64,000 nt of DNA from NCBI GenBank assembly GCA_964016885.1, contig OZ024762.1, forward strand, positions 15,004,001-15,068,000, given 5' to 3'. The stretch comes from Eledone cirrhosa. Taxonomy: Eukaryota. Both the position numbers and the translations under genes were made by a program. Numbering within the stretch: position 1 is the stretch's first letter; the number at the start of each line of letters is the position of its first letter. The notes under the pieces are model-generated. The model worked only from the letters and a program-made list of their open reading frames with translations, was not told the origin of the DNA and ran no database searches. This document shows, piece by piece, positions 7,584 through 34,041 of this stretch.

Positions 7584-10500
7584 CTTGTGTATATATACAT
7601 TTCACACACACACACACACACACAGTTTGTGACAAAAGACATGATAGCCTCCCTAGTGCTGGTGATCTACACAATAAAAGCACCCAGGACCCTTGAGTTT
7701 GTGACAAAAGACAGAACTACTCATCTGCACTCGATAGAATATATGACCATACATAACGAGATGAAGACCCCTTGGCCAGCCTGTCCGGGGAGGTCAGTAA
7801 CCCCACTTCAGTACTGACTTGATCTATGTAGACCCATCCAACCCTTGGTAGCAAGGAAAGTGGACATTATACGATGATATATATCGGAAAAGAGTCAGGA
7901 CCGCGTCTGCTGAGCTCCGGTCGTTTCAACAGCTAGATCCGAACCTAGCTGTCAAAACAGCCGGATCTCAGCCGTCAGGGTCCTGACTCTTTTCATATTA
8001 CCCACTCTGCTACCCTAAGTATTGAGTACTCTGGTGCATTATGGTCCACCTGGTTTCTTACCACACCCTCTTTGTTGTGTGTGTGTATATATATATATAT
8101 ATAAGCACTCACTGTAAATGAGGTTGGTGTTAGGAACGGCATCCAGCTGTAGAAATGAAGCCAGAATCAGTTCTCGTACGAGCAAGGCATGGTCAGCCGA
8201 CCAGCTACTGCCCACAACAGGGCAACCCGTCAAACCCATACCAGCGTGGAAGAACAGATGTAAAATGGTGATGATGATGATGATAAAATATGACAAAAGA
8301 CTTGTGTTTCTGAAAATGTATGCTTAATCTACCTTGTATTAAAGTGTGTGAGTGTGTATATATATTTATGTAAGTTGGCCTATTTCTCTCTTTCTCTCTG
8401 CTTTTGTATGTCATACACACACATATCTATATTTTACGAGGATTATGTGACTCCCCTCCCTCAAAAATCAATGGTAAAAAGGTAGGGAGTTAGTCAGCTT
8501 ATATACACCATCTAAACATAATCTGTTGATTAGCTGCCTCGGCTTATAAATGGGGGTTGGATTTTTGCCCATTTCTCAGACATAAAATAAAGGGGAGTTG
8601 GGTTGGCTTCTATTCGAGTATACACAGTAGTTTACATATTAGTTTTTGTATACATTATATTGTAGATTTTAACAGAACTTATGATCATTGGTCTCAGTGT
8701 GAAAGATGTCCGATTAATGAGGAAAAGTTCCGGTGAGTGTTTTATTATATATATATATGTTTGGCTTTTTTTTTTTATTTTTTTTTTTTTTTTTTTTTTT
8801 TTTTTGTTGATGAATTTATATATAAATCTACTCACTGAGGGCATTCTGGGAATATTGAAATACACATATATATATTACATACATATATATATATGTATTT
8901 ATTTATTTATATATATATATATATGTGTGTGTGTGTATATCTATGACTTTGTCATGTATATACATACATAATATATATGTGTGTATGTGTGTGTCTATCT
9001 GTATATGTGAAATTGATGGTGTTTTATTATTACTTTTTTGTTTTTTTGGGGAGGTTTCTTTTTTTGTTGTTTTTTTTTTCCCAAATAATATTGGCTTTAT
9101 TTTACCAGGGTCTATTTTTGTAATATCTGAAGATAATCTTTGATTTATTTTTTGGAAAATGTCTTGGATATGTGATGATAATAATAACCTAACCAATTTC
9201 CTTTTCATCCACAGCCATTTTTCTTTCGATATCTTGTATAACAGCAATCTGTATTAAATCTTAATGCCCTCTATCACATGAAACCACATTATCCCTTTAG
9301 CATTTAAACCAGCTGTATCCAGCCAGAATTCTCTCACCTCTTTCTGTTCAAACCAGCCATAACTGGCTGCTCATACCGACGTTAAGGTATTGTTCTCAAA
9401 ATAAATGATATCAAAATCTCGTAGATTCGATATTATGTGAGATAATTATGTAAGATAAAGCCTTTACCACAAAAATATAATAGTATACATAGAGTAATGT
9501 AAATGCTAAAGGGTTAACTGTACCGAATTTCACGCACCAGGCATGGGTCGACTTGAAGCTATAGTAAATTACACTTGCCCAAGATGCCATGCAGTGGAAT
9601 TGAACCCTGGACCTCATGATTGAGAAGCAAACTTCTTAACCATCCAGCCATGTTTGATCTTCACACCTTTGCCACAAGTAGTTTTATCCGTTTAGCATTT
9701 AAACTGGCCATATCTGGCCAGAATTCTCTCACCTCTTTCTATTCAAACCGGCTGTAACTGGCCGCTCATACTGACGTTAAGGTTTTGTTCTCAAAATAAA
9801 TAACATCAAAATCTCATAGATTCCATATTATGTGGCCTTCACTACAAAAATACAATAGTAAATATAGAATAATGTAAATGCTAAAGAATTAACAAAACAT
9901 CCTTGAAAAGTACAAAACACCACTATGACTGCATCTCATTAAAAAAATTAGACCCTTTGATGGTTATATTTCTAAAACATTTGATACCAACTTGGCCACC
10001 AAAACTGGCTCTGGTTCTATGAAAGAAAATCTCCCAGCTAAACTGACATAGGAATGAGCTGTAACAACAACAACACTTCTACTACAAAATAAATATCTAT
10101 TCTAAACTCATGTGAATTACTTGCTCTCTCTTGCTTCTTGGTCAGATTTTCTATTTTTAAAAATGGATTTTTATGACTATAAAGTGTTTGGTGATCAAAC
10201 TGAGACAACATATGGTAGAAAGGACTCCTTAGTCTCAGCTGCAGAAACCTTGCCCACCAAAGGATGGGAGGACCCTGAGTTGTGTCAAAGACTTGACAAC
10301 CTTCCCTGTGCACTCGGTAGAATGTGAGACCGTACATAAGTGTGACAACAGATCCATGGCTTGTGTGGGAGGTCAGCAGCTCCACTTTAGTACTGACTTG
10401 TCCAACCCTTGCTAGCAGGGAAGGTGGACGTTAAAACGATGATGATGATGATGATGAATCTTCCCATAGGCCCCCTACTACAATTACACACCCACTGCCA

Positions 10501-13500
10501 GATTGTTTTATGGCAAGTATAACAATCAAAAGACAGGCATTTTTATACTTTAGGGAAGGACAAATGCTTCATAGTGTGTTTTGTGTGCAATAAAGTACTT
10601 GCAATTTTGAACTTGGCTCACAGACTAATCCTACCTTTGGGAATCACTGCAGTTCGCGAGCTTCCCAGGTTGGGAATCACTGAAGTTAACAGGCTCCCTA
10701 GGCTATGAATCACTGCAGTTCACGGGCTTCCCAGGTTGGGAATCACTGAAGTTAACAGGCTCCCTAGGCTGGGAATCACTGCAGTTTGCGGGCTTCCTAG
10801 TCTGGGAACTACTGTAGTTCACGGTCTCCCTAGGCTGGGAATCACTGCAGTTTACGGGCTTCTTAGGCTGGGAATTGCTGGGGCTCAGAGACCCCCTCCT
10901 AGGGTGAGGGAATCACTGCTTTAAAGACATGAGGAAATGGAGGTGGGTGTAGGGACAGCGTTAGATTTTCACCTTCTTCCCAATTGACTGGATCGTCTTT
11001 TATTTCCAGTCAGTCAGATTTTTTTTTTACCAGAAATAACCAAAAATATTTAGTTTCAGCTCATCTCCATCAGTTTCTTATGGTAAGTAAATAGCAAGTT
11101 TGATGAATGACTCTTGAATCTACTAATCCTACTTTAATGATGTATTATTATTGTTGTCATTGTTGTTGTCTTTATTAGGGCGGTGGGTTGCTGGAATCGG
11201 TAGAGCGTTGGCAAAAATGCTTCGCAGTATTTTTTTCGGCTCTTTACATTCCGAGTTCAAATTCCGCCAAGGTCAACTTTGCCTTTCATCCTTCAAGGTC
11301 GATAAAATAAAGTACCAGTCAAGTACTGGGGTCAATTTAATTGACTTTCTCCTTCCCTTCAAATTGCTGGCCTTGTGCCTAAAGTAGAAACAATTATTAT
11401 TATCTGCATTATCCTTTTTCTTAAATCTTAGTTTTAGATGTGTGTAATTTCAGTAAGAAGGAGTTCATTGTAATATAAGTTCATATGAAGTATGTAAGAT
11501 ATACATGATTTCTTTTAATGGAAAAGGGATATTAAAAGGGTAGGCTATCTGTAATTGATCTTGTAGTTTAAAATGTTGGTATTTGATCCTGTAGTTTAAA
11601 ATGTTGGTATTTGATCCTGTAGTTTAAAAGTGTTGGTATTTGTTCCTGTAGTTTAAACTGTCATTATTTGATCCTCCAGGTTAATCCTGCCGAGGTTAAC
11701 TTTGCCTTTCATCCTTACGGGGTCGATAAAATAAAGTACCAGTAATGTACTGGGTAATTGCTGGCCTTGTGCCAATAGTAGAAACAATTATTTGATCCTC
11801 CAGTTTAAAATGTCAGTATTTGATTCTGTAGTTAAAAATGTCAGTATTTGATTCTGTAGTTAAAAATGTTGGCATTTGATCCTCCAGTTTAAAATGTCAG
11901 TATTTGATCCTCTAATTTAAAATTTCAGTATTTGATCCTCTAGTTAAAAATGTCAGTATTTGATCCTGTAGTTAAAAGTGTTGGTATTTGATCCTCCAGT
12001 TTAAAATGTCAGTAATTGATCCTGTAGTTTAAATGATTTATTGTCAGTTTAAAATATCTATATTTGATCCTGTAGTTAAAATGATTTATTGTCAGTTTAA
12101 AATGTCAATATTTGATCTTGTTCAAAATGATTTATTGTTAGTTTAAAATGTCTGTATTTGATCCTCTAGTTAAAATGATTTATTGTCAGTTTAAAATGTT
12201 GCTTTTTGATCTATTAGTTTAAAATGTCAGTATTTATTCAACAGTTAAAACTGTTGATGTGTCTGTTAATTATACAGAAACCTATTGAATGTGGGTCTTT
12301 TTATATCTATGAATGAATGGTTAGAGAGGTGGCACTACTCGAACAGTAGTTTATGAAAGAACATTGAGTTTGATAACTGCATTGAGCTCTTTGCTGCAAA
12401 CAGTTATTTTATTAGTGCCAGTCAGGTAGAGCCACTACTTCTCTAAATTGAGAGATCGCAGCTCTGATACTATGGGCATGTGATTAGAATGTCTCAGGAA
12501 AGAATCACTGGACAGATTTTGCTGGCAAAACCAACCAGCAAGAGACCCAGGGGTAGACCCTGAGCAAGATGGTTGGCTAACATCCATGAGCTTGGCTGGT
12601 CTGGCTTGGGGATCCAGCCAGATCAGTTGGAGACAGTTGCAAAGAAGAAAATTGAATGTCTCTCTCTCTGTCTCTTTCTAAAAAAATATAAATGACCCCG
12701 TCGTTATTTTATTGATCACTTCATCACCACATTTCTATTGAAAGACACTGCCTATAATTTTCAAGTAACTAAGACTTTGGAAAAACATAGCAAAATAGCT
12801 TTCTCGTTAAGCTGGTATTTGGAACATAATTTAACAAAGGTTCATGTATTGATGGAAGGTTTTTTTCATAAATGTAGTAAACATTTAAAAATATACTGTT
12901 TAGTATTGTGAAGGACCAGGTGCAGATTGAAGCTGTTTAGTAGGAGTTAAAAGATTTAAACCTCTGTTATGTCTTGTGTGTGTATTCTTGTTTAGGGTTG
13001 TTTTTCTTTTCTTTTTTTTTAGAGGGATGGGGGTGGGGGGGGTTATAGCAAAACCAGTTCGTCTAAAATTGTTCTTCACAAAATATTTTTTTTAACCAGT
13101 TTTTAAATAATTTTTTTTTTTTTTCTAAGAAGCCATATTCTATTTGTACATTTTTACATAAATTTTTTTTAAATCTGAGAAAAAAAAAATTGAGAATAAA
13201 TAAAAAATTTTTTTTATTTGTTTTATATTTTTTCTTTTCTTTTTGTGAAGGTGCATAGCCTAGTGGTAAGGGTGTTGGGCTTACGATCTTACCTATCGTG
13301 GGTTCAATTCTTAGACCAGGTGGCACATTGTGTTCCTAAGCAAAACACTTTTCACTTCACGCTGCTCCAGTCCACTCAGCTGCTGGTGCTGTTACTGAGG
13401 GTTAACTCCTGTGGTAGACTAGCGTCCTATCCAGGAGAGGGGGAGTCTTGTACTCTCAGTCACATAATAACGCCAATGAAATAATGAAACCGGGATAAAT

Positions 13501-14331
13501 TCTGGCGGCCTGATCAGCCCCCAGGCTTGTGATGGACCCCCTCCTTTTTTTTTTTTTTTTTTTTTTTTTAACCTTTTCTTTATTTTAATCGGACAAAAAA
13601 AAAAGCACTCTACATCCCGCCCCTAAAAAATTGATGGTAAGTTTCTCGGGGAAAAATTAATCACCCTCAGTGAGTGGGTTTATTATTATTTTTATTTTTT
13701 TTATTTAAATTTTTTTTTTTTTTTTTTGACCTTGGGTTTCACGTGTTCTGGTTGGTTTCAGATGATAACCGCCATAATTTTTAAAAATTAGTTCCACTAA
13801 TGCGGGACATTCTGAATACTTACGCAGGTGCATCCCGTGGGTTTGCTTTTGTGGAGTTTCAGAACGTAGCAGATGCCCAGCGCTGGATGGAACAGAATCA
13901 GGTCTTACAACAATTATCTAAGACTCTTGTATTACCGGTACAGTAGACAAAAAAAAAACATACACACATACATACATACATACATACATACACACATACA
14001 CACTTATCTATTCTGACACATACATGCATACATATTTACATGCATTCACACACACAATATATACATGCACACATACACAATATATATATGTATATGTGTA
14101 TATATGTATATATATATATTACTCATACAGTTTATAGTGATAGACAGCGTGTCCTAAAAAAATGTATACACACTTTGATTACCTGTACAGGTAATATTTA
14201 TTAGAATGTTGCTCAAGTGTGTATACATTTTTTTTTTTTGGACACCCTCTATATATAATTAAGTCTGATTACATATATATGTGTGTATATATTTATTTAT
14301 ATATATATATATATTACTCATACAGTTTATG

Positions 14332-17814: not shown

Positions 17815-20800
17815 AATGTATATATATATATGTGTGTGTGTATATATATATCTATACACACACGCATATACATATATACACACAAACAGACATGTTTAGA
17901 GAAAATGCTATCTGCTTTTTTAAATTTAAAAATTGAGCTTTCTGCAGCATGCTTCTTTGGTTGAAATAATGTCCTATAAAAAAGAAAAGAAAAAAGGAAA
18001 TGTCTTTTAGTTTTAAACCAATGCATGTGTATTTCTTCTTTTCTTTATTATATATACTGATACATAGATACCAGTTGATATTGTCTCTTTTCCTCTACCC
18101 TCTCTACCTCTCACTCTCCTTTCTTTGATTTTATATATATCATCATCATCCTTGCTGGATTTACAATTGTGCTACGGTGTTCTTAAGCACATTAACCCCT
18201 GACACAGTGTCATCTAAAGTGACATTAACCCTGTCACAGTGTCATCTGTAGTGACATTAAACCTGTCACAGTGTCATCTGTAGTGACATTAACCCTGTCA
18301 CAGTGTCATCTGTAGTGACAGTAACCCTGTCACAGTGTCATCTAAAGTGACATTAACCATGTCACAATGTCATCTGTAGTGACATTAATCCTGTCAGTGT
18401 CATCTGTAGTGACATTAACCCTGTCACAGTGTCATCTGTAGTGACATAAAGCACTGTCACAGTTTCATCTGTAGTGACATTAACCCTGTCACAGTGTCTT
18501 CTATAGTGACATTATCCCTGTCACACTGTCATCTGTAGTGACATTAACCCTGTCACACTGTCATCTGTAGTGACATTAACCCTGTCAGTGTCATCTGTAG
18601 TGACATTAACCCTGTCACAGTGTCATCTGTAGTGACATTAACCCTGTCACAGTGTCATCTGTAGTGACATTAACACTGTCACACTGTCATCTATAGTGAA
18701 ATTAACCCCTGTCACAGTGTCATCTATAGTGACATTAACCCTGTCACACTGTCATCTGTAGTGACATTAATTCTGTTATCTGTAGCGACATTAACCCTGT
18801 CACAGTGTCATCTATAGCGACATTAACCCTGTCACAGTGTCATCTGTAGCGACATTAACCCTGTCACAGTGTCATCTGTAGCGACATTAACCCTGTCACA
18901 GTGTCATCTGTAGTGACATTAACCCTGTCACAGTGTCATCTGTAGCGACATTAACCCGTCACAGTGTCATCTGTAGCGACATTAACCCTGTCACAGTGTC
19001 ATCTGTAGTGACATTAACCCTGTCACAGTGTCATCTGTAGCGACATTAACCCTGTCAGTGTCATCTGTAGTCACATTATCCCTGTCACAGTGTCATCTGT
19101 AGTGACATTAACCCTGTCACAGTGTCATCTGTAGTGACATTAACCCTGTCACTGTCATCTGTAGCGACATTAACCCTGTCACAGTGTGATCTCTAGTGAC
19201 ATTAACCCTGTCACAGTGTCATCTGTAGCGACATTAACCCTGTCAGTGTCATCTGTAGTCACATTATCCCTGTCACAGTGTCATCTGTAGTCACATTATC
19301 CCTGTCACAGTGTCATCTGTAGTGACATTAACCCTGTCACAGTGTCATCTGTAGTGACATTAACACTGTCACAGTGTCATCAGTAGTGACATTAACCCTG
19401 TCACTGTCATCTGTAGCGACATTAACCCTGTCACAGTGTGATCTCTAGTGACATTAACCCTGTTAGTGTCATCGCTAGTGACATTAACCCTGTCACAGTG
19501 TCATCTGTAGCGACATTAACTCTGTCACAGTGTGATCTCTAGTGACATTAACCCTGTCACAGTGTCATCTCTAGTGACATTAACCCTGTCACAGTGTCAT
19601 AGCTAGTGACATTAACCCTGTCACACTGTCATCTGTTGTGACATTAAGCCTGTCACTGTGTCATCTGTAGCGACATTAACCCTGTCACAGTGTCATCTAT
19701 AGTGTCAGTAACCCTGTCAGTGTCATCTGTTATGACATTAACCCTGTCACAGTGTCATCTGTAGTGACATTAACTATGTCTCAGTGTCATCTGTAATGAC
19801 ATTAACCCTGTCACACTGTCAGCTGAAGTACATTATCCTTGTCACAGTGTCATCTGTAGTGACATTAACTCTGTTGTCATCTGTAGTGACATTAACCCTG
19901 TCAGCGTCATCTGTAGTGACATTAACCCTGTCACAATGTCATCTGTAGTGGCATTAACCCTGTCATCTGTAGCGACATTAACCTTGTCACAGTGTAATCT
20001 GTAGTGTCAGTAACCCTGTCAGTGTCATCTGTAATGAGATTAACCCTGTCACATTGTCATCTGTAGTGACATTAACCCTGTCACAGTGTCATCTGTAGTG
20101 TCAGTAACCCTGTCAGTGTCATCTGTAGTGACATTAACTCTGTTACAGTGTCATCTGTAGTGACATTAACCCTGTCACAGTGTTATCTGTAGTGACATTA
20201 ATCCTGTCAGTGTCATCTGTAGTGACATTAACTCTGTTACAGTGTCATCTGTAGTGACATTAACCCTGTCACAGTGTCATCTGTAGTGACATTAACCTTG
20301 TCACAGTGTCATCTGTAGCGACATTAACCCTGTCACAGTGTCATCTGTAGTGCCATTAACTCTGTCCCCTGTCACACTACTGTCATTGTAGACAAATTAA
20401 CCCTATAACGTCTCACTGTCCCTTCACACGTTGAACCCTTCCTTCATCTCATTCATGTGCTTTTGTGTCAACAAAGACTTCATAAATTGTGTATTTTCAT
20501 TATGACATACACACACACATACATATACATGTATTGTCCCATAACTCCTGATGGGGTCGTAGGGGTGCCATAGTATCATACAGAATTTATAGGGTATCTT
20601 AAGCCTGGCAGAGGCCACCCCTCTTCAGGTCACACATACATATATACAGATACAAACATACATATGCACACACACACATACGTATATATATTTAATTACA
20701 TAATAAACAACACAAGATAATTGTTTTGTCTGATGAACGAACTAGATGTTCCTTTGGTAATGAAATAATTATATTGTGTTGTTTATAATATAATTAAATA

Positions 20801-21148: not shown

Positions 21149-23219
21149 CATCTTCACTCTTCTCTCCCATCCTATCCTACATTAAGATATTCAAAAGAAT
21201 TAAGGGAGTGGTTTAATTTATCTTTGCTTATTTTAGAGTTCTTCAATATTCTTTTTCTCCTCCCTTCAACATCTATGCATAATGAGATGTGTATTAAAAG
21301 AAAGAAAAAAAATGTGCCTTTCCTTCTCCCTCTCAGCTACAACCCATTCTTGTTTCACACCAAGCCCCTTTCACCCTTTGGCACTTGCACCTTGAACCTT
21401 TTGTCACAATAGTTCACTGCCTGTTATTTTCAAGCCATTTTCAAAATAATCGAGAATTTGAAAGGATTTAGTAATATAACTATCTTGTGGATTGGCAGAA
21501 TTGTTACTGTCAAACATTTGCTGTATTTAGTTACAGACTTTTACACTCTGAGTTCAAATCCTGCAGGTGTCAGCTTTGCCTTTCATCTTTAAAGGTGTCA
21601 AAAAGAATGCTTTGCTGCATTTGATCTGACTCCCTACATTCTAAGTTCGGAGTTGTGACTGACAGATAATATCAGTAAAGGAAAGACAAATGGAAACATT
21701 GTTTCCTTGGTCTGATCTGACAATCAGCTAGTTTCTTCTGTCAGGAGTTGTGACCAACAGATAGTATTAGTAATGGAAAGACCAATGGAAACATTGTTTC
21801 CTTGGTCTGATCTGACAATCAGCTCTTTCCTTATGCCAGGAGTTGTGACTAACAGATAATATCAGTAAAGGAAAGACAAATAGAAACATTGTTTCCTTGG
21901 TCTGATCTGACAATCAGCTCTTTTCTTATGCCAGGAGTTGTGACTAACAGATAATATCAGTAAAGGAAAGACAAATAGAAACATTGTTTCCTTGGTCTGA
22001 TCTGACAATCAGCTCTTTCCTTATGCCAGGAGTTGTGACTAACAGATAATATCAGTAAAGGAAAGACAAATAGAAACATTGTTTCCTTGGTCTGATCTGA
22101 CAATCAGCTCTTTCCTTATGCCAGGAGTTGTGACTAACAGATAATATCAGTAAAGGAAAGACAAATAGAAACATTGTTTCCTTGGTCTGATCTGACAATC
22201 AGCTCTTTTCTTATGCCAGGAGTTGTGACTAACAGATAATATCAGTAAAGGAAAGACAAATGGAAACATTGTTTCCTTGGTCTGATCCGATGGTCGGCTA
22301 GTTTCTTCTGTCAGGAGTTGTGACCAACAGATAGTATTAGTAATGGAAAGACCAATGGAAACATTGTTTCCTTGGTCTGATCTGACAATCAGCTCTTTTC
22401 TTATGCCAGGAGTTGTGACTAACAGATAATATCAGTAAAGGAAAGACAAATGGAAACATTGTTTCCTTGGTCTGATCTGACAATCAGCTAGTTTCTTCTG
22501 TCAGGAGTTGTGACCAACAGATAATATCAGTAAAGGAAAGACAAATGGAAACATTGTTTCCTTGGTCTGATCTGACAATCAGCTAGTTTCTTCTGTCAGG
22601 AGTTGTGACCAACAGATAATATCAGTAAAGGAAAGACAAATGGAAACATTGTTTCCTTGGTCTGATCTGACAATCAGCTAGTTTCTTCTGTCAGGAGTTG
22701 TGACCAACAGATAATATCAGTAATGGAAAGACAAATGGAAACATTGTTTCCTTGGTCTGATCTGACAATCAGCTCTTTTCTTATGCCAGGAGTTGTGACT
22801 GACAGATAATATCAGTAAAGGAAAGACAAATGGAAACATTGTTTCCTTGGTCTGATCTGACAATCAGCTAGTTTCTTCTGTCAGGAGTTGTGACCAACAG
22901 ATAGTATTAGTAATAGAAAGACCAATGGAAACATTGTTTCCTTGGTCTGATCCGACAATCAGCTAGTTTCTTCTGTCAGGAGTTGTGACCAACAGATAGT
23001 ATTAGTAATAGAAAGACCAATGGAAACATTGTTTCCTTGGTCTGATCTGACAATCAGCTAGTTTCTTCTGTCAGGAGTTGTGACCAACAGATAGTATTAG
23101 TAATAGAAAGACCAATGGAAACATTGTTTCCTTGGTCTGATCCGACAATCAGCTCCTTTCCATTTTCCTCTCTTCTACTAACTAGCCAGACATTGCTATC
23201 ATTCCCCTGTATATTGAAT

Positions 23220-23250
<31 letters not shown>

Positions 23251-26200
23251 CCTACATACCATCTCCTACATTTAAAATTTTTTTTTTTTTTTTTTTCAAT
23301 GTGTTTCTTCTAAGGTTTTCTTTATATCACACCCCTCCCACTGCCTTTTAATTTATTGATGATGATGATGATGATGATGATGCTGTTAGTGCACTTCCAC
23401 CACTGCCGCCGCTACTATTACTACAGCTGCCCTTCAGCAAGCCTTTAATCTAACACCACACACACACATACACACACATATACATACTACCAATGATATC
23501 CAACACACACACACACATATACATACCACCAATGATATCCACCACACACACATATACATACCACCAATGATATCCACCACACACACATATACATACCACC
23601 AATGATATCCACCACACACACACATATACATACCACCAATGATATCCACCACACACACATATACATACCACCAATGATATCCACCACACACACACACATA
23701 TACATACTACCAATGATATCCACCACACACACACACATATACATACCACCAATTATATCCACACACACACACATATACATACTACCAATGATATCCACCA
23801 CACACACACATATACATACTACCAATGATATCCACCACACACACACACATATACATACCACCAATGATATCCACCACACACACATATACATACCACCAAT
23901 GATATCCACCACACACACACACATATACATACTACCAATGATATCCACCACACACACACACATATACATACCACCAATTATATCCACACACACACACATA
24001 TACATACTACCAATGATATCCACCACACACACACACACATATACATACCACCAATGATATCCACCACACACACACACATATACATACTACGAATGATATC
24101 CACACACACACATATACATACCACCAATGATATCCACCACACACACATATACATACCACCAATGATATCCACCACACACACACACACATATACATACCAC
24201 CAATGATATCCACCACACACACACACATATACATACTACCAATGATATCCACCACACACACACACATATACATACCACCAATTATATCCACACACACACA
24301 TATACATACTACCAATGATATCCACCACACACACACACATATACATACCACCAATGATATCCACCACACACACACATATACATACCACCAATGATATCCA
24401 CCACACACACACATATACATACCACCAATGATATCCACCACACACACATATACATACCACCAATGATATCCACCACACACACATATACATACTACCAATG
24501 ATATCCACCACACACACACACATATACATACTACCAATGATATCCACCACACACACACACATATACATACCACCAATGATATCCACCACACACACACACA
24601 CATATACATACCACCAATGATATCCACCACACACACACACACATATACATACCACCAATGATATCCAACACACACACACACATATACATACCACCAATGA
24701 TATCCACCACACACACACATATACATACCACCAATGATATCCACCACACACACACATATACATACTACCAATGATATCCACCACACACACACATACATAC
24801 CACCAATGATATCCACCACACACACACATATACATACCACCAATGATATCCACCACACACACATATACATACCACCAATGATATCCACCACACACACATA
24901 TACATACCACCAATGATATCCACCACACACACACATATACATACCACCAATGATATCCACCACACACACACATATACATACCACCAATGATATCCACCAC
25001 ACACACACATATACATACCACCAATGATATCCACCACACACACACACATATACATACTACCAATGATATCCACCACACACACATATACATACCACCAATG
25101 ATATCCACCACACACACACACACATATACATACCACCAATGATATCCACCACACACACATATACATACTACCAATGATATCCACCACACACACACACATA
25201 TACATACCACCAATGATATCCACCACACACACATATACATACCACCAATGATATCCACCACACACACACACACACATATACATACCACCAATGATATCCA
25301 CCACACACACATATACATACTACCAATGATATCCACCACACACACACATATACATACCACCAATGATATCCACCACACACACATATACATACCACCAATG
25401 ATATCCACCACACACACACATATACATACCACCAATGATATCCACCACACACACACACACATATACATACCACCAATGATATCCACCACACACACACATA
25501 TACATACCACCAATGATATCCACCACACACACACACACACATATACATACCACCAATGATATCCACCACACACACACATATACATACCACCAATGATATC
25601 CACCACACACACACACACACATACATACCACCAATGATATCCACCACACACACACACACATATACATACTACCAATGATATCCACCACACACACACATAT
25701 ACATACCACCAATGATATCCACCACACACACACACACATATACATACCACCAATGATATCCACCACACACACACATATACATACCACCAATGATATCCAC
25801 CACACACACACACACATATACATACCACCAATGATATCCACCACACACACACATATACATACCACCAATGATATCCACCACACACACACACACATATACA
25901 TACCACCAATGATATTCACCACACACACACATATACATACCACCAATGATATCCACCACACACACACACATATACATACCACCAATGATATCCACCACAC
26001 ACACACATATACATACTACCAATGATATCCACCACACACACACACACATATACATACCACCAATGATATCCACCACACACACATATACATACCACCAATG
26101 ATATCCACCACACACACATATACATACTACGAATGATATCCACCACACACACATATACATACCACCAATGATATCCACCACACACACATATACATACCAC

Positions 26201-26747
26201 CAATGATATCCACCACACACATATACATACCACCAATGATATCCACCACACACATATACATACCACCAATGATATCCACCACACACACACACATATACAT
26301 ACCACCAATGATATCCACCACACACACACACATACATACTACCAATGATATCCACCACACACACACACATATACATACCACCAATGATATCCACCACACA
26401 CACACATATACATACTACCAATGATATCCACCACACACACACATATACATACCACCAATGATATCCACCACACACACACATACATACTACCAATGATATC
26501 CACCACACACACACACATATACATACCACCAATGATATCCACCACACACACACATACATACTACCAATGATATCCACCACACACACACATATACATACCA
26601 CCAATGATATCCACCACACACACACATATACATACCACCAATGATATCCACCACACACACACACATATACATACCACCAATTATATCCACCACACACACA
26701 TATACATACCACTAATGATATCAAACACACACACACACCAATGATAT

Positions 26748-26782
<35 letters not shown>

Positions 26783-29700
26783 CACAAATGATACCAAACA
26801 CACACACACACACACATAACACATGATATCCACCACACATACAGATACATAACACCAATGATATCCACCACACACACACAACACCAATGATACCCACACA
26901 CACACACAACACCAATGACACCCACCACACACACACACAGATGCACTCCACACATACACTACACCAGCACAGTGGTTTTAAACCATGTTGACAGTTAATT
27001 TTTTTCTCTTTAATATAATAACAAGGGTTTTCATTTTCCTTTTTAAATACTATTTATTTCTAATTGGCTTAGATAGGGTATTTATGCCTCGTTAGTTTAA
27101 TTAATAAACATTATGTAAAAAAAAAGAAAATACTTTTCCCCCCATAAACCCTTGTTTGTATCTACTTTAGAGTTCTCATTGCTTTCCATAGAGTAAAAAA
27201 AGAGAAATTATATATATATGTATATAATGTATATATATATATATATTAAACATACATATATATATTGTATAATGTGTATATATATATATATATTATATGT
27301 ATAATGCATAATATATATATATATATAAATATATGTACATATAATGTATATATATATGTGTGTGTATATATATATATATATATGTATAATATATATATAT
27401 TATGTATGTATATATATGTCACTTGTATCTTTTGTCTCTCTACAATAAGTACTATTTCTACTACTACTACTACTACTACTCTCTACATACTCTTACTACT
27501 ACTACTACTCCTACCTCTAGACATCACGTTGACCTGAGGCTTCCACAGACACACTCTTTGATGTTGTGTCCTCAATCTAGATCATGGCATTGGCAAAATG
27601 GATGATGTGTTGTTTTCGCATGGTTTCCCTTTCATTTATACCGGCCCTCTCCTTTTTGCTTCCAGGGTTCCCTCTATCTTCAAGACCAGTTCCATGTCAC
27701 TATGCATTACAGTCAGCCTAAAATGGGGCCTGAGAAGGCACAAAAAAGTGACTGGGTTTGTACAAAGGTAAGCTGGGTATTTTGTATTATGCAGCTCTTT
27801 TTTTTTTATTTCTTTTATTTTCGTTTTCTTACTTTTTGTTTCTGATTTTGTTACTTAGCCTTCTAGCATTTAAACCAGCCATACCTGGCCAGAATTCTCT
27901 TACCTCTTTCTGTTCAAACTGGCCATAACCAGCTGCTCAGACTGATGTTAATCCTTTAACATTTAAACCAGCCATACCTGGCCAGAATTCTCTTACCTCT
28001 TTCTGTTCAAACTGGCCGTAACCAGCCGTTCAGACTGATGTTAATCCTTTAACATTTAAACCAGCCATATCTAGCCAGAATTCTCTCACCTCTTTCTCTG
28101 TTCAAACTGGCCATAGCTGGCCAGAATTATCTCACCTTTTTCTGTTCAAACTGGCTGTAACTGGCCACTCATACTGATGTTAAGGTATTGTTCTCAAAAT
28201 ATATAATATCAAAATCTCATAGATTCGATTTTATGTGAGGTAAAGCCTTTACAGTGAAAATATAATGGTAAATATAGGGTAATGTAAATGCTAAAGGGTT
28301 AACACTTTAGCATTTAAACTGGCTGTATCTGGCCAGAATTCTTTCCCCTCTTTCAGTTCAAACCGGCCATAACTGGCTGCTCATATTTATGTTAAGGTAT
28401 TGTTTTACAATTGTCAAACTAGAAGAAAGATGATGATAGATTTTTATTTTGTCCATTTCAGTGTGGAGCTCACAATTTCAAACGAAGGGATTTCTGTTTC
28501 CAGTGCAGCGTATCACGAGAAGGTAAGTATGTGTGTGTGTCTGCCTGTCTGTCACTTAACCCAATGGTTAATATTGAGATTTTAGACTTCTATTTCATCT
28601 AAATATTCTATGTTTGCTTTGGACCATCTCGTCATTAAGATCCTGTAATGATCTAGCAGGAAATATCTAGTAACAGGTTTGTTAATTCAAATGTTTACAG
28701 CATCTTTACTAATAGACAGATTGTTGTGAAAATATGTAGTAATATCTTTTAACATCCTGTAATGATTTAGCTGAAAATATCTAAAACTAGGTTTGTTAAT
28801 TCAAATATTTAGAGTATCTTTACTAGAGGATAGATTGTTGTGAAAATTTGCAGTATTATCTCTTAACATCCTGTAATGATTTCGCAGAAATTGTCTAAAA
28901 TCTAGGTCTGTTAATTCAAATATTTATAATATCTTTACTAGTGGACAGATTGTTGTTAATATTTATCTCTTAACATCCTGTAATTATTTAACTGAAAATA
29001 TCTAATAACAGGTTTGTTAATTCAAATGTCTATAGTTTTTACTACATACTTGGTACACACTGTGAATTGGTTGGTCTTGGGAAAGGCTCACGGCTGTCAG
29101 AAAATAAGGTGGTGCCCCAGCATGGCCAAAGTCTAATGACTGAAACTAGTAAAAAAAAAAAATGGTGTTCCAGCATGGCCACAGTCTAAGGACTGAAACC
29201 AGTAAAAGAATAAAAGAATTGTGGTCTGTGGCTGTTACATAATGTCTTGTGATCATGGTGATGTGCTATAATTGGTCTCAAAATGGAATTTCAGAATCAG
29301 AACGAGCCAAACAAGGAGATGGATTTGACCAAGTTGGGACAAACCCTTGCAACAGTAAGTTTGCTCTTTGCCTGCTCTTAACCCCACCCCTTCCTTTGAA
29401 AAAAAACAAACTTTTGATACTAAACTGCTTCAGACTACCCCTGTTCTATGATACAAAACTGTTTATTTTAAATTTCATCATGAGTAAGTTAAATTATATT
29501 GCTAAAACCCTTAAAAATTAAATGTTTCTATTATTATTATTTTTTATATAATTATTTTTTGCAGCTTTGATATTCCGTGGTTTGGATGCACTCACCACCG
29601 AAGAGACTTTGTCCCAAGCTTTATCTCAGCAGTCATCACTTCCTCTGAAAAACATTAAGATCATTCGGGATGAATTAACAAACACCTCACGGGGCTACGG

Positions 29701-31574
29701 CTTTGCTGAAATGAGTTCCATCCTCGATTCTACACAGGTTTTGGAACATCTGCGTCAGATGAACCCACCATTTGAGGTTGAGGGCAAACTGATCTTGGTA
29801 GCTTTTGCCAAAAACACTTTCAGCACAGTGTACGTAGAAACCCTCTTTCTGCCTCATCATCATCATCTGTCTATTTTCCATGTTGCTATGGGTTATACCG
29901 GTTACCACGGGTTATACCAGTTACCACGTTCTGAGATTTGACAGACCAGATAACCACGCCTTCCTCATACGTTCCATTTTGATATCGTTTCTATGGTTGA
30001 TGCCCTTCCTGATGCCAACCATTTTACAGCGTGCATTAGATGCGTTTTATGGTGGTACCAGCACTACCACCTTACACACTGGGTGCTTTATATCATAGCA
30101 CCAGCACTACCACCTTACATACAGGGTAGAGTGGGTGCTTTATATCATAGCACCAGCACTACCACCTTACATACAGGGTAGAGTGGGTGTTTTATATCAT
30201 AGCACCAGCACTACCACCTCACATACAGGGTGTACTGGGTGCTTTAGAAGCAAACCTCAAAACCTGAGGTCCCCAACCACCAGGTCGCAAAGAAATTAAC
30301 TTGATTAAAATTATACAATAGATAAATTGAATATCGGACTTTAATGTTAAAAGATTTATTTAAATATTCAATATTCATCTACTTTAATAAATTGCTCTCT
30401 TTATCGAAATGCACTTAAATATCATATATGTGCAACTACCGGCCTGCGGAAAGGTTGTCCGGTATGAAGCCGATCCGTGGTATAAAAACGTTTGGAGATC
30501 GCTGCTCTAAACCACACAGCCTGCTAACATTCTTTTTTGTTTGTTTTACTCCACAGGATGGCAACACTTAACAGCCGGCCTACTTCATATTCCGGAGGTC
30601 AAATGGTGAGTAATGGTCAAATTTTACTGGGGTCAGCTTTTTTCATTTTTTTTTAATTAATTTCAGTCACATATGAAATAAGTGAGTTACAAGTCCAGGG
30701 CCTCATAGTTCAGTGGAGGGGTTAGGAGACATATATTTTGATAAAGGGATTTTGTCCTGAAATATAGTGAGCGAGACAATATCTTTTCATGGAGAGATTT
30801 TATCCTAAAATATAGTTGGAGGTGAGAGAGACAAATATCTTTTCATGGAGGGATTTTATCCTAAAATATAGTTGGAGGTGAGAGAGACAAATATCTTTTC
30901 ATGGAGGGATTTTATCCTAAAATATAGTTGAAGGTGAGAGAGACAAATATCTTTTCATGGAGGGATTTTATCCTAAAATATAGTTGGAGGTGAGAGAGAC
31001 AAATATCTTTTCATGGAGGGATTTTATCCTAAAATATAGTTGGAGGTAAGAGAGACAAATATCTTTTCATGAAGGGATTTTATCCTAAAATATAGTTGGA
31101 GGTAAGAGAGACAAATATCTTTTCATGGAGGGATTTTATCCTAAAATATAGTGTGATAGGGATGTTCTCTAGTCGAAGATTTATTGAGATCTTTAAAGAC
31201 TTTAACTGGTTTACTTTACGCCATGTTTTGTTTCTTCTCTTATCACATCAGCGTACCTGGAACTATGATCAACAGCATGGTGATTATTATTATAATCCTT
31301 CTGGTTATGAACATTCTACATTCTACGACCAAAACAACCCCCACTACACACCAGGCCAGAACTATGACTCCACTTACTACAACCAAAATTTCTCTCATCA
31401 AGGTATTATTTCACTCTTTATGTTCGTTAATATTTTTTACTCCATCTGTCACTCATTCTCTATCTACAGATCTGTATATTCTCACACAAAACTATAGTAC
31501 CAGTCAAATACTGGGGTTGATTCTTCCTCTATATTTCATTCTCACTTCCTCTCTCTCTCTTTTCTCTGGAAGAA

Positions 31575-31608
<34 letters not shown>

Positions 31609-31621
31609 ATGTATGTGTGTG

Positions 31622-31668
<47 letters not shown>

Positions 31669-34041
31669 GTATGGAAGATAGAGGAAACTATAGAGGTATA
31701 AAGTTGATGGACCAGGTCATGAAAGTAACAGAAAGAGTTATAGCACAGCTGATTAGGGACCGGGTGAATATAGACGAGATGCAATTTGGGTTTGTTCCAG
31801 GGAAGGGCACCACTGATGCGCTCTTCCTTGTGAGGCAATTACAGGAAAAGTACCTAGCTAAAAGTAAGCCACTCTACTTGGCATTTGTCGACCTTGAGAA
31901 AGCCTTTGACAGAGTTCCACGTGCAGTAATCTGGTGGGCTCTTAGAAAACTAGGAGTAGATGAATGGCTTGTGAAAGCGGTACAAGCCATGTATAGGGGA
32001 GCAGTCAGCAAAGTTAGGATTGGCAATGAGTATAGCGAGGAATTTAGCGTACAGGTTGGGGTCCACCAGGGCTCTGTTCTTAGCCCTCTCCTGTTCATCA
32101 TAGTCCTGCAGGCAATAACGGAGGAGTTTAAGACCGGATGCCCATGGGAACTCCTGTATGCTGATGACCTCGCACTCATAGCTGAATCTATGGTAGAACT
32201 AGAGAATAAATTCCAAACCTGGAAGCAGGGACTAGAGAGAAAGGGCCTCAAAGTCAACATGACAAAGACTAAGGTCCTTATAAGTAGACGAGAAAACAAC
32301 CCAGATCCCCTCAGGGAAATGGCCTTGCTCAGTATGTAGGAAAGGTGTAGGTAGGAACTCCATTCTTTGCCCCAAATGCAAACAATGGGTACACAAGAGA
32401 TGTAGCGGGATCTCAGGAAGCTTAATTAAGAATGTAGGATTCACATGCAGCAGCTGTGCTGAAACAGCAAGCAAACAGCCACAGGAAACAAGTACCACCA
32501 ATCTCTGGGAGGGCCCTGTAGAAACAGTAGACAGCTTCTGCTACCTAGGTGACCGAATTAGCAACGGAGGTGGGTGCTCAGAAAGTACAATAACTAGGGT
32601 AAGAACGGGATGGAAGAAGTTTAGGGAACTACTACCACTGCTAGCTGCAAAAGGCTTCTCCCTCAGAATGAAAGGCAGACTGTATGATGCGTGTATCCGA
32701 ACAGCGATGTTGCATGGTAGTGAGACCTGGGCGCTGAAGGTGGAAGACTTACGTAGATTAGAGAGAAACGAAGCCAGCATGCTCCGATGGATGTGTAACA
32801 GTAATATACGTGAACGACAAAGCATAAATGAATTGAGAGAGAGACTGAGCATAAGAGGAATCAAATGCTGCGTGCAGGAGAGGCGGTTACGCTGGTATGG
32901 ACATGTGATGCGTATGAAGGATGACAGCTGCATAAAAAGGTGCAGAGCACTAGAAGTTGATGGAAACCGCGGAGTGGGGAGACCCAAGATGACTTGGGAT
33001 GAGGTGATAAAAGCCGACCTTACCCAACTACACCTCTCAAAGTCAATGACACACGACCGTGACTTCTGGCGTCACGCAGTAATACAGGGTACCCGACCTC
33101 CCATGGGTACATGCTGAAGCATATAAACAATATGCCCCCCCCCCCCCCCCCCCCCCCACCGCAAGGTGGTCGTGGAGGTGCCACGGCAAAAAAGCACCCA
33201 GCCCACACTGTAAAGTGGACGTGTAGGCGCCACGAAAAAGCACCCAGCACTCACTGTAAATGAGGTTGGTGTTAGGAAGGGCATCCAGCTGTAGAAATCA
33301 AGCCAGATCAGTTCCTGTATGAGCAAGGCATGGTCAGCCGACCAGACACTGCTCACAACAGGACAACCCGTCTAACCCATGCTAGCGTGGAAGAACGGAC
33401 GTAAAACGGTGATGATGATGATGATGATGATGATGGAAGCGCATGGCTTAGTGGTTAGAGCATTGGGCTTGCAATCAAAAGGTTGTGAGTTCAATTCTCA
33501 GACCGGGTCTTGTGTTGTTTCCTTGAGCAAGGCACTTTATTTCACATTGCTCCAGTTTACTCAGCTGTAGAAATGAGATGATAGGACTGAGGTCCCTATC
33601 ATTCCACTACAAAGTGGTCGTGGAGGTGCCACGGCAAAAAAGCACCCAGCACTCACTGTAAATGAGGTTGGTGTTAGGAAGGGCATACAGCTGTAGAAAT
33701 CAAGCCAGAATCAGTTCCTGTATGAGCAAAACAAGGTCAGTCGACCGGTCACTGCCCACAACAGGACAACCCGTCTAATCCATACTGGCGTGGAAGAACG
33801 GACGTAAAACGGTGATGATGATGATATATATATATATATACATATAAACACAGATATATATCATCATCACCATTTAACATCCATTTTTCCACGCTAGCAT
33901 GGGTTAGACGAGTTGTCCTGTTACACACACACACAGAGCCATATATATATACGCACACATAGATATACACACATACATCATCATCATTATCACCACCGTT
34001 TTACGTCCGTAGCATATATATATATTTATATACACACACAT

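Follow-up and report, generated by a model that had tools for sequence, protein, structure and literature searches.

A probable self-controlled splice switch with an upstream poison acceptor in the RBM5/RBM10-family gene of Eledone cirrhosa

The closest described system is found in the human genes RBM5 and RBM10. Exon 6 of human RBM10 (c.503-576) has 74 nt, and RBM10 promotes the skipping of this exon in its own message and in that of RBM5, the skipped message being then decayed (PMC5737846, in part), which agrees with the skipping-NMD circuit named in the preliminary description of the present locus. RBM5 exon 6 also spans 74 bases and responds to NMD loss (PMC6547761, in part). A term search of the main text of PMC5737846 gave no mention of 'alternative 3', 'retain' or 'retention'. 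In human cells RBM5 and RBM10 are placed on the branch-site-bound U2 snRNP, where they prevent the following step of assembly and switch on DHX15 (bioRxiv 10.1101/2023.09.21.558883, PMC13041897, both in part). The authors of that preprint (bioRxiv 10.1101/2023.09.21.558883) leave alternative 3' splice sites to later work.

Unproductive events that are kept for long at one position of the gene, with a changing form, have been described for SRSF5 (PMC4379411, in part) and SMNDC1 (PMC11357089, in part). These are mainly poison cassette exons, whereas the event reported here, which concerns exon 5 of the RBM5/RBM10-family gene of Eledone cirrhosa and was observed in RNA of a relative, is an upstream acceptor. 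Sequence similarity in SRSF5 extends out to sea urchin (PMC4379411, in part); at exon 5 a short intronic element matches between mollusc and human. The human circuit and deeply conserved unproductive splicing (SRSF5, SMNDC1) are therefore known, and what is new is a variant with an upstream poison acceptor in a mollusc. Among the titles and abstract beginnings of open-access listings there was no paper on an invertebrate RBM5/10 splice switch and none in which this exon has a poison acceptor upstream of it; the bioRxiv supplements could list a human counterpart of that acceptor.

The gene was modelled in the window, by which we mean the whole 64-kb stretch of DNA that was analysed, and its parts relevant to the switch are the following.

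1178 to 46952, + strand: RBM5/RBM10-family gene, 22 coding exons, 1156 aa, exon model without internal stop
8666 to 8732, + strand: exon 4, whose donor CCG/GTGAGT serves both acceptors of exon 5 (both junctions in sequence run X16)
13828 to 13901, + strand: exon 5, 74 nt, RNP1 part of RRM1, homologue of human RBM5/RBM10 exon 6
27666 to 27767, + strand: exon 6, containing a TAA (27719-27721) reached via skipping or a +1 frameshift

The gene encodes RRM1, a putative RanBP2-type zinc finger, RRM2, OCRE, a putative C2H2 finger and a G-patch; according to the exon model the two RRMs, OCRE and G-patch follow the order of the RBM5/RBM10 family. In single-exon scans both RRMs, OCRE and G-patch were above the Pfam cut-offs and the C2H2 matches slightly below; the RanBP2-type and C2H2 zinc fingers align with named RBM5-like proteins (tblastn, six homologues). 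The best single-stretch PDB matches were human RBM5 and RBM10, and the named homologues were mainly molluscan RBM5-like proteins, together with echinoderm RBM5/10-like ones. The G-patch and C2H2 region is likewise present in the human RBM5/RBM10 that act with DHX15 on the U2 snRNP (bioRxiv 10.1101/2023.09.21.558883, PMC13041897, both in part). One gene copy was found in E. cirrhosa, whereas human has two paralogues (RBM5 and RBM10), and exon 5 is single copy genome-wide in DNA and protein searches of the 3.0-Gb genome.

Some other features of the gene were observed. Exon 1 (1178-1860) encodes a long low-complexity N-terminus rich in Pro, Ala, Gly and Ser, absent from the bivalve, abalone and chiton proteins compared; exon 1 of P0006, from a distant relative, is identical to it at 73 of 228 positions. 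Intron 11 contains open frames (31521-33114) that by eye resemble a LINE-type reverse transcriptase, and about half of the 13.8-kb intron 3' of exon 5 is occupied by minisatellite arrays at 18189-20366, 21649-23154 and 23470-26880, with periods of 32, 95 and 37.

The homology of exon 5 to human RBM5/RBM10 exon 6, proposed in the preliminary description, was borne out, as both have 74 nt, the same RRM1 peptide and the same borders (phase 1 to 0 in E. cirrhosa). Human RBM10 exon 6 also shares with exon 5 the conserved flanks, a weak donor, a TCTGAAT element before the acceptor and a frameshift on skipping (PMC5737846, in part). The human donor, as the primers of that paper indicate, is non-consensus and follows the same AATCAG as in exon 5. 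The two systems differ in the event itself, which is exon 6 skipping in human RBM10 and RBM5 and use of an upstream poison acceptor in the relative described below. Around exon 5 the following elements were recognized.

13797 to 13801, + strand: CTAAT resembling a branch point, belonging to the coding acceptor (A at 13800), within the invariant block
13811 to 13820, + strand: TCTGAATACT element replacing the pyrimidine tract, 9/10 bases shared with the acceptor of human RBM10 exon 6, off register by one base
13902 to 13948, + strand: weak donor CAG/GTCTTA and conserved intron start, with a read-through stop TAG at 13944-13946

The human RBM10 acceptor sequence was taken from mutagenesis primers (PMC5737846, Table S2, in part). 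With one mismatch allowed, the 10-mer of 13811-13820 was expected 4.6 times on both strands of the 64-kb window and found twice, and our own arithmetic gives about 0.002 for an in-register 10-mer match by chance when five offsets and nine choices of 10-mer are allowed. The core of the element, UCUGAA, lies within a top RBM10 CLIP motif (PMC5499739, PMC10445532, both in part). In human targets, direct RBM5/10 binding found little support when motifs were mutated.

The coordinates first given for exon 5, its stops and its acceptors were all correct on recomputation. The coding acceptor is indeed pyrimidine-poor (10/17, tied second-lowest among 21), and CTAAT is a plausible branch-point sequence with its A 27 nt upstream of that acceptor. 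The donor had been called the poorest in the gene. Alone among the 21 donors it has no consensus base at +3 to +6, but its predicted U1 pairing (-5.6 kcal/mol) is stronger than that of four others. As had been claimed, skipping of exon 5 leads to the TAA at 27719-27721 and read-through into the intron to the TAG at 13944-13946; each of these stops has 16 junctions downstream, and in the exon model the premature stops at 13782, 27719 and 13944 all lie far upstream of the last junction. Retention of the introns flanking exon 6 of human RBM5, which the preliminary description states, was not found in term searches of the papers examined.

Poorer still than the acceptor of exon 5 is that of exon 8 (29270-29354), with 8/17 pyrimidines and a second AG six bases downstream; exon 8 has 60 nt, so its skipping preserves the frame. 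Two further candidates were rejected at exon 5. The in-frame ATG at 13800, as a restart, appears to be a by-product of the CTAATG branch sequence and lies behind a frame of 377 codons, and a U12-type intron is not suggested by the donors, which do not match the consensus of that class.

Upstream of exon 5 a second acceptor and its consequences can be described by four features.

13679 to 13727, + strand: T-rich tract, probably not a working pyrimidine tract, 5' of the branch-like TTGAC
13726 to 13761, + strand: upstream (poison) acceptor with branch-like TTGAC, TG-rich stretch and TTTCAG; orthologous site spliced in X16
13762 to 13827, + strand: exon extension via the upstream acceptor, with a length of 66 nt here and in X16 but 67 nt in both X5 and X12
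13782 to 13784, + strand: in-frame TAA brought in by the extension, preceded by 377 codons and followed by 17 junctions; position not conserved

This acceptor lies 66 nt 5' of the coding one, with its AG ending at 13761, and yields the in-frame TAA at 13782-13784 as first reported. The site had also been described as the better-looking of the two on account of a long T tract, and neither point held. It is not clearly stronger, because it has 11/17 pyrimidines against 10/17 at the coding acceptor, and the T tract is upstream of the branch-like TTGAC (13726-13730) and therefore unlikely to be a working pyrimidine tract. The stop at 13782 alone is no sign of selection, since a random AT-rich extension would usually bring in a truncation too. 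A consensus donor, G/GTAAGT at 13637, is found 125 nt 5' of the poison acceptor and is preceded, at a distance of about 31 nt, by an AG; the segment 13606-13645 is either a possible small cassette exon or a product of chance; two other GGTAAG occur in the same intron.

Splicing of this region was observed in RNA of relatives of E. cirrhosa. A sequence-run search with 13730-13955 listed 24 runs, of which eight were examined; five gave contigs (X5, X12, X16, X18 and X20), three of these being RNA runs (X16, X18 and X20), and X14, X15 and X17 gave no contigs, which is no evidence of absence. The search stretch confines the RNA evidence to the junctions of exon 5 in relatives, and the choice of runs by exact matches to the E. 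cirrhosa stretch brings a bias toward identity. In X16 a contig of 125 nt (depth 30.4) has exon 4 spliced directly onto the site orthologous to 13762, and a second contig (depth 32.2) carries the normal junction of exon 4 with the coding acceptor, contig depth giving no isoform levels. The extra poison 3' splice site of the preliminary description is thus used in a relative alongside the normal one. The first 14 bases of the X16 extension have nine matches to 13762-13775 (8/9 at the start), followed by 79/81 over 13776-13856. The X16 species is no close relative, because 6/30 exon 4 bases differ from E. cirrhosa, and its stop is likely at the same place, since a count of 8/19 sampled words fits two unplaced differences near 13776-13790. 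The upstream junction was present in one of the three RNA runs with contigs; X18 and X20 showed normal junctions alone, on both sides of the exon. The upstream acceptor was seen only among relatives of E. cirrhosa. A third AG at 13790-13791, which lies in the invariant block and whose use would insert 12 in-frame residues into RRM1, was used by no contig and was rejected. The protein P0006 is spliced up to exon 5 and then reads on into a similar intron start, with 25/25 identical residues in exon 5, which points to retention of the intron after exon 5 in a distant relative.

The flanks of exon 5 were found to be conserved. The genomic contigs of two other species (X5 and X12), unspliced from 13730, have listed changes only at 13766, 13777, 13784 and from 13909 onward, so that 13785-13908 is invariant and the 32 bases of the upstream acceptor (13730-13761) have no listed difference. 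Neither normal junctions alone nor an unconserved intronic flank, the outcome set against the idea at the beginning, was therefore found, as X16 uses the upstream site and the flanks are conserved. Within the extension X5 and X12 each have a one-base insertion, 13784 is G and the frame is shifted. According to our reading of the listed differences, the X12 insertion leads to a stop at 13775-13777 and that of X5 to the same frame as skipping. Since it has 67 nt and shifts the frame in these two species, the extension is not a conserved protein insert.

Exon 5 itself has no differences in X5, X12, X18 and X20, nor over the 29 nt covered in X16. When X16, X18 and X20 are counted by hand, the ends of exons 4 and 6 have 22 differences in 146 bases, whereas exon 5 has none in 177 (Fisher p 1e-8), a contrast that is inflated because the runs were found through exact matches. 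For 23 degenerate codons to stay unchanged at the rate of their neighbours the chance is about 1e-5 per species. Among sampled 31-mers, 11/19 occur in ten runs of five other organisms, 14/19 in one closer organism and 8/19 in X16, compared with 4/19 in runs shown to carry exon 5 alone. Because a relative splices the orthologous acceptor and the block is conserved, this arrangement is not due to chance, and we consider that it is a conserved unproductive-splicing element.

It is very improbable that a weak acceptor merely leaks, with the upstream junction as a harmless result, or that this junction serves to make a useful short protein, with the conservation having another cause. Such a view would fit the occurrence of the junction in one run only, a contig depth that sets no level and the fact that truncation is expected by chance. 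The upstream contig was nevertheless assembled at depth 30 versus 32 for the normal one, and the 32 bases leading up to the upstream AG are without listed change in two species, in contrast to the extension, where indels occur and the peptide tails therefore differ between species.

The preliminary description had drawn attention to a perfect palindrome beside the branch point and to a possible pairing of ATGCGG with CCGC. We therefore give here the two structural features.

13775 to 13790, strand not assigned: 16-nt palindrome, not a conserved feature, pair probability 0.03-0.04
13791 to 13893, + strand: predicted long hairpin (hypothesis) in which the branch point and acceptor flank are paired with exon 5, z -2.5 to -2.9

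The palindrome is present in E. cirrhosa as claimed, one of eight perfect 16-nt palindromes within the 64-kb window, but it is broken in both of the other species' genomic contigs (X5 and X12). The proposed pairing did not gain support, the CCGC/GCGG pair probability being 0.1, and with low pair probability and no conservation the palindrome and the ATGCGG/CCGC stem were rejected as functional elements. The only Rfam result in 13500-14000 was one chance match on a CA repeat (E 0.72), with none at the gathering score.

The long hairpin deserves separate attention, as the block could have been conserved as a structure, perhaps a substrate of RNA editing, that hides the branch point and the coding acceptor, so that splicing turns to the upstream acceptor once the hairpin forms. 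Cephalopods conserve the flanks of RNA-editing sites. The hairpin covers nearly all of the invariant block 13785-13908 and would for that reason explain the absence of silent changes; it is the best of 22 acceptors, with only 3 of 200 shuffles as stable at z -2.9, values that belong to a range picked after the fold had been seen. Ten neighbouring offsets give z > -1.6 and the wider region -0.9. The invariant block offers no variation for covariation, the zero letter differences in exon 5 across three RNA contigs speak against an editing substrate, and the hairpin cannot explain the shared TCTGAAT element, because the human exon differs at the pairing codons. We regard this structural explanation as improbable, while it may coexist with autoregulation.

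The borders of exon 5 were compared in other animals using 176 retrieved proteins, 118 of which carry the exon 5 motif, with taxon labels inferred from the peptides. In the open reading frames (ORFs) not called spliced downstream, the residue following exon 5 is Val, the mark of a GT donor, in 83/86, and the other three look like spliced proteins missed by the script. An A at +4 is possible in at most 32/80 read-through ORFs, corresponding to 12/29 similarity groups, against 16/20 other donors of the E. cirrhosa gene (p 0.009), and since so few groups are compatible with it a weak donor seems common at exon 5 across animals. On the acceptor side, Leu-Asn in the register of TCTGAAT occurs in 6/66 upstream read-throughs (P0001-P0003, P0005 and P0071-P0072), four of which are query sequences or near copies of one. 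Met is found at the place of CTAAT in P0001-P0003, P0005 and P0018, and six vertebrate-like ORFs have Met-Leu-Ser just 5' of exon 5, as the human primer predicts. The TCTGAAT element was absent from two arthropod-like DNA flanks (L002 and L004) and from most read-through ORFs.

A metagenome scan gave 80 loci, and the ten inspected comprised three animal-like RBM5/10 genes, one other eukaryotic RBM5-like gene and six unrelated RRM genes. The arthropod-like contigs L002 (1-222) and L003 (576-814) each have about 2 kb of uninterrupted coding sequence and keep an intron, upstream of the 74-nt exon in L002 and downstream of it (about 160 nt) in L003; they may represent RNA with retention or intron-poor DNA. 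In L005 (854-949), which is an RBM5-like gene of AT-rich eukaryotic DNA, neither border of the exon carries an intron.

Taken together, we suggest with a probability of roughly 0.6 that exon 5 and its flanks form a conserved splice switch with two acceptors, the upstream one predicted to trigger NMD, that is controlled by the gene's own product. A good branch point with a poor tract is what the branch-site targets of RBM5/10-DHX15 have in common with exon 5 (bioRxiv 10.1101/2023.09.21.558883, PMC13041897, both in part); that repression is known for human cassette exons, whereas the exon 5 system is known from sequence and from the RNA of a relative. With a good branch point, no pyrimidine tract and a weak donor, the spliceosome would be slow at exon 5. 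An excess of RBM5/10 on the U2 snRNP would then stall or reject the complex at 13800-13827, as in human cells, and splicing would be diverted, so that 13762 is used, the exon is skipped or the intron that follows is retained. As every diverted outcome truncates the frame, more protein would give less productive mRNA.

A conserved unproductive switch that lacks RBM5/10 feedback and is governed by tissue, temperature, other splicing regulators or the like would fit the junctions and the conservation equally well. Upstream use does differ between runs (1/3), and the human event is skipping and not acceptor choice. We nevertheless find this unlikely, since RBM10 represses precisely the homologue of exon 5, both in its own message and in that of RBM5, and RBM5/10 act at the branch site adjoining the 3' splice site. 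The element is therefore probably autoregulatory.

The feedback switch likely predates the split of molluscs and vertebrates, because the 74-base exon is the same as in human and a relative splices at the upstream site. As judged from sequence, the sensor exon was likely inherited from a bilaterian ancestor. We more tentatively propose that a single sensor of RBM5/10 activity came from the mollusc-vertebrate ancestor and that its output was rewired, to skipping in mammals and to an upstream poison acceptor in cephalopods, a scenario about which we have considerable doubt. If it is true, the shared bases would point to the cis feature by which a spliceosome becomes liable to RBM5/10-DHX15 rejection.

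Enriched motifs failed, on mutation, to account for what makes a site sensitive to RBM5/10. A natural target that has probably persisted since molluscs and vertebrates diverged, with a few bases in common and two competing acceptors 66 bases apart, would be a compact reporter for this sensitivity. RBM10 is a tumour suppressor and the gene of TARP syndrome, and lung cancers have splice-site mutations at exon 6 (PMC5737846, in part); our results suggest that it may be useful to look for non-coding variants in the TCTGAAT bases that precede exon 6 of human RBM10. For the family as a whole, the switch at exon 5 would extend the RBM5/10 feedback circuit beyond vertebrates.
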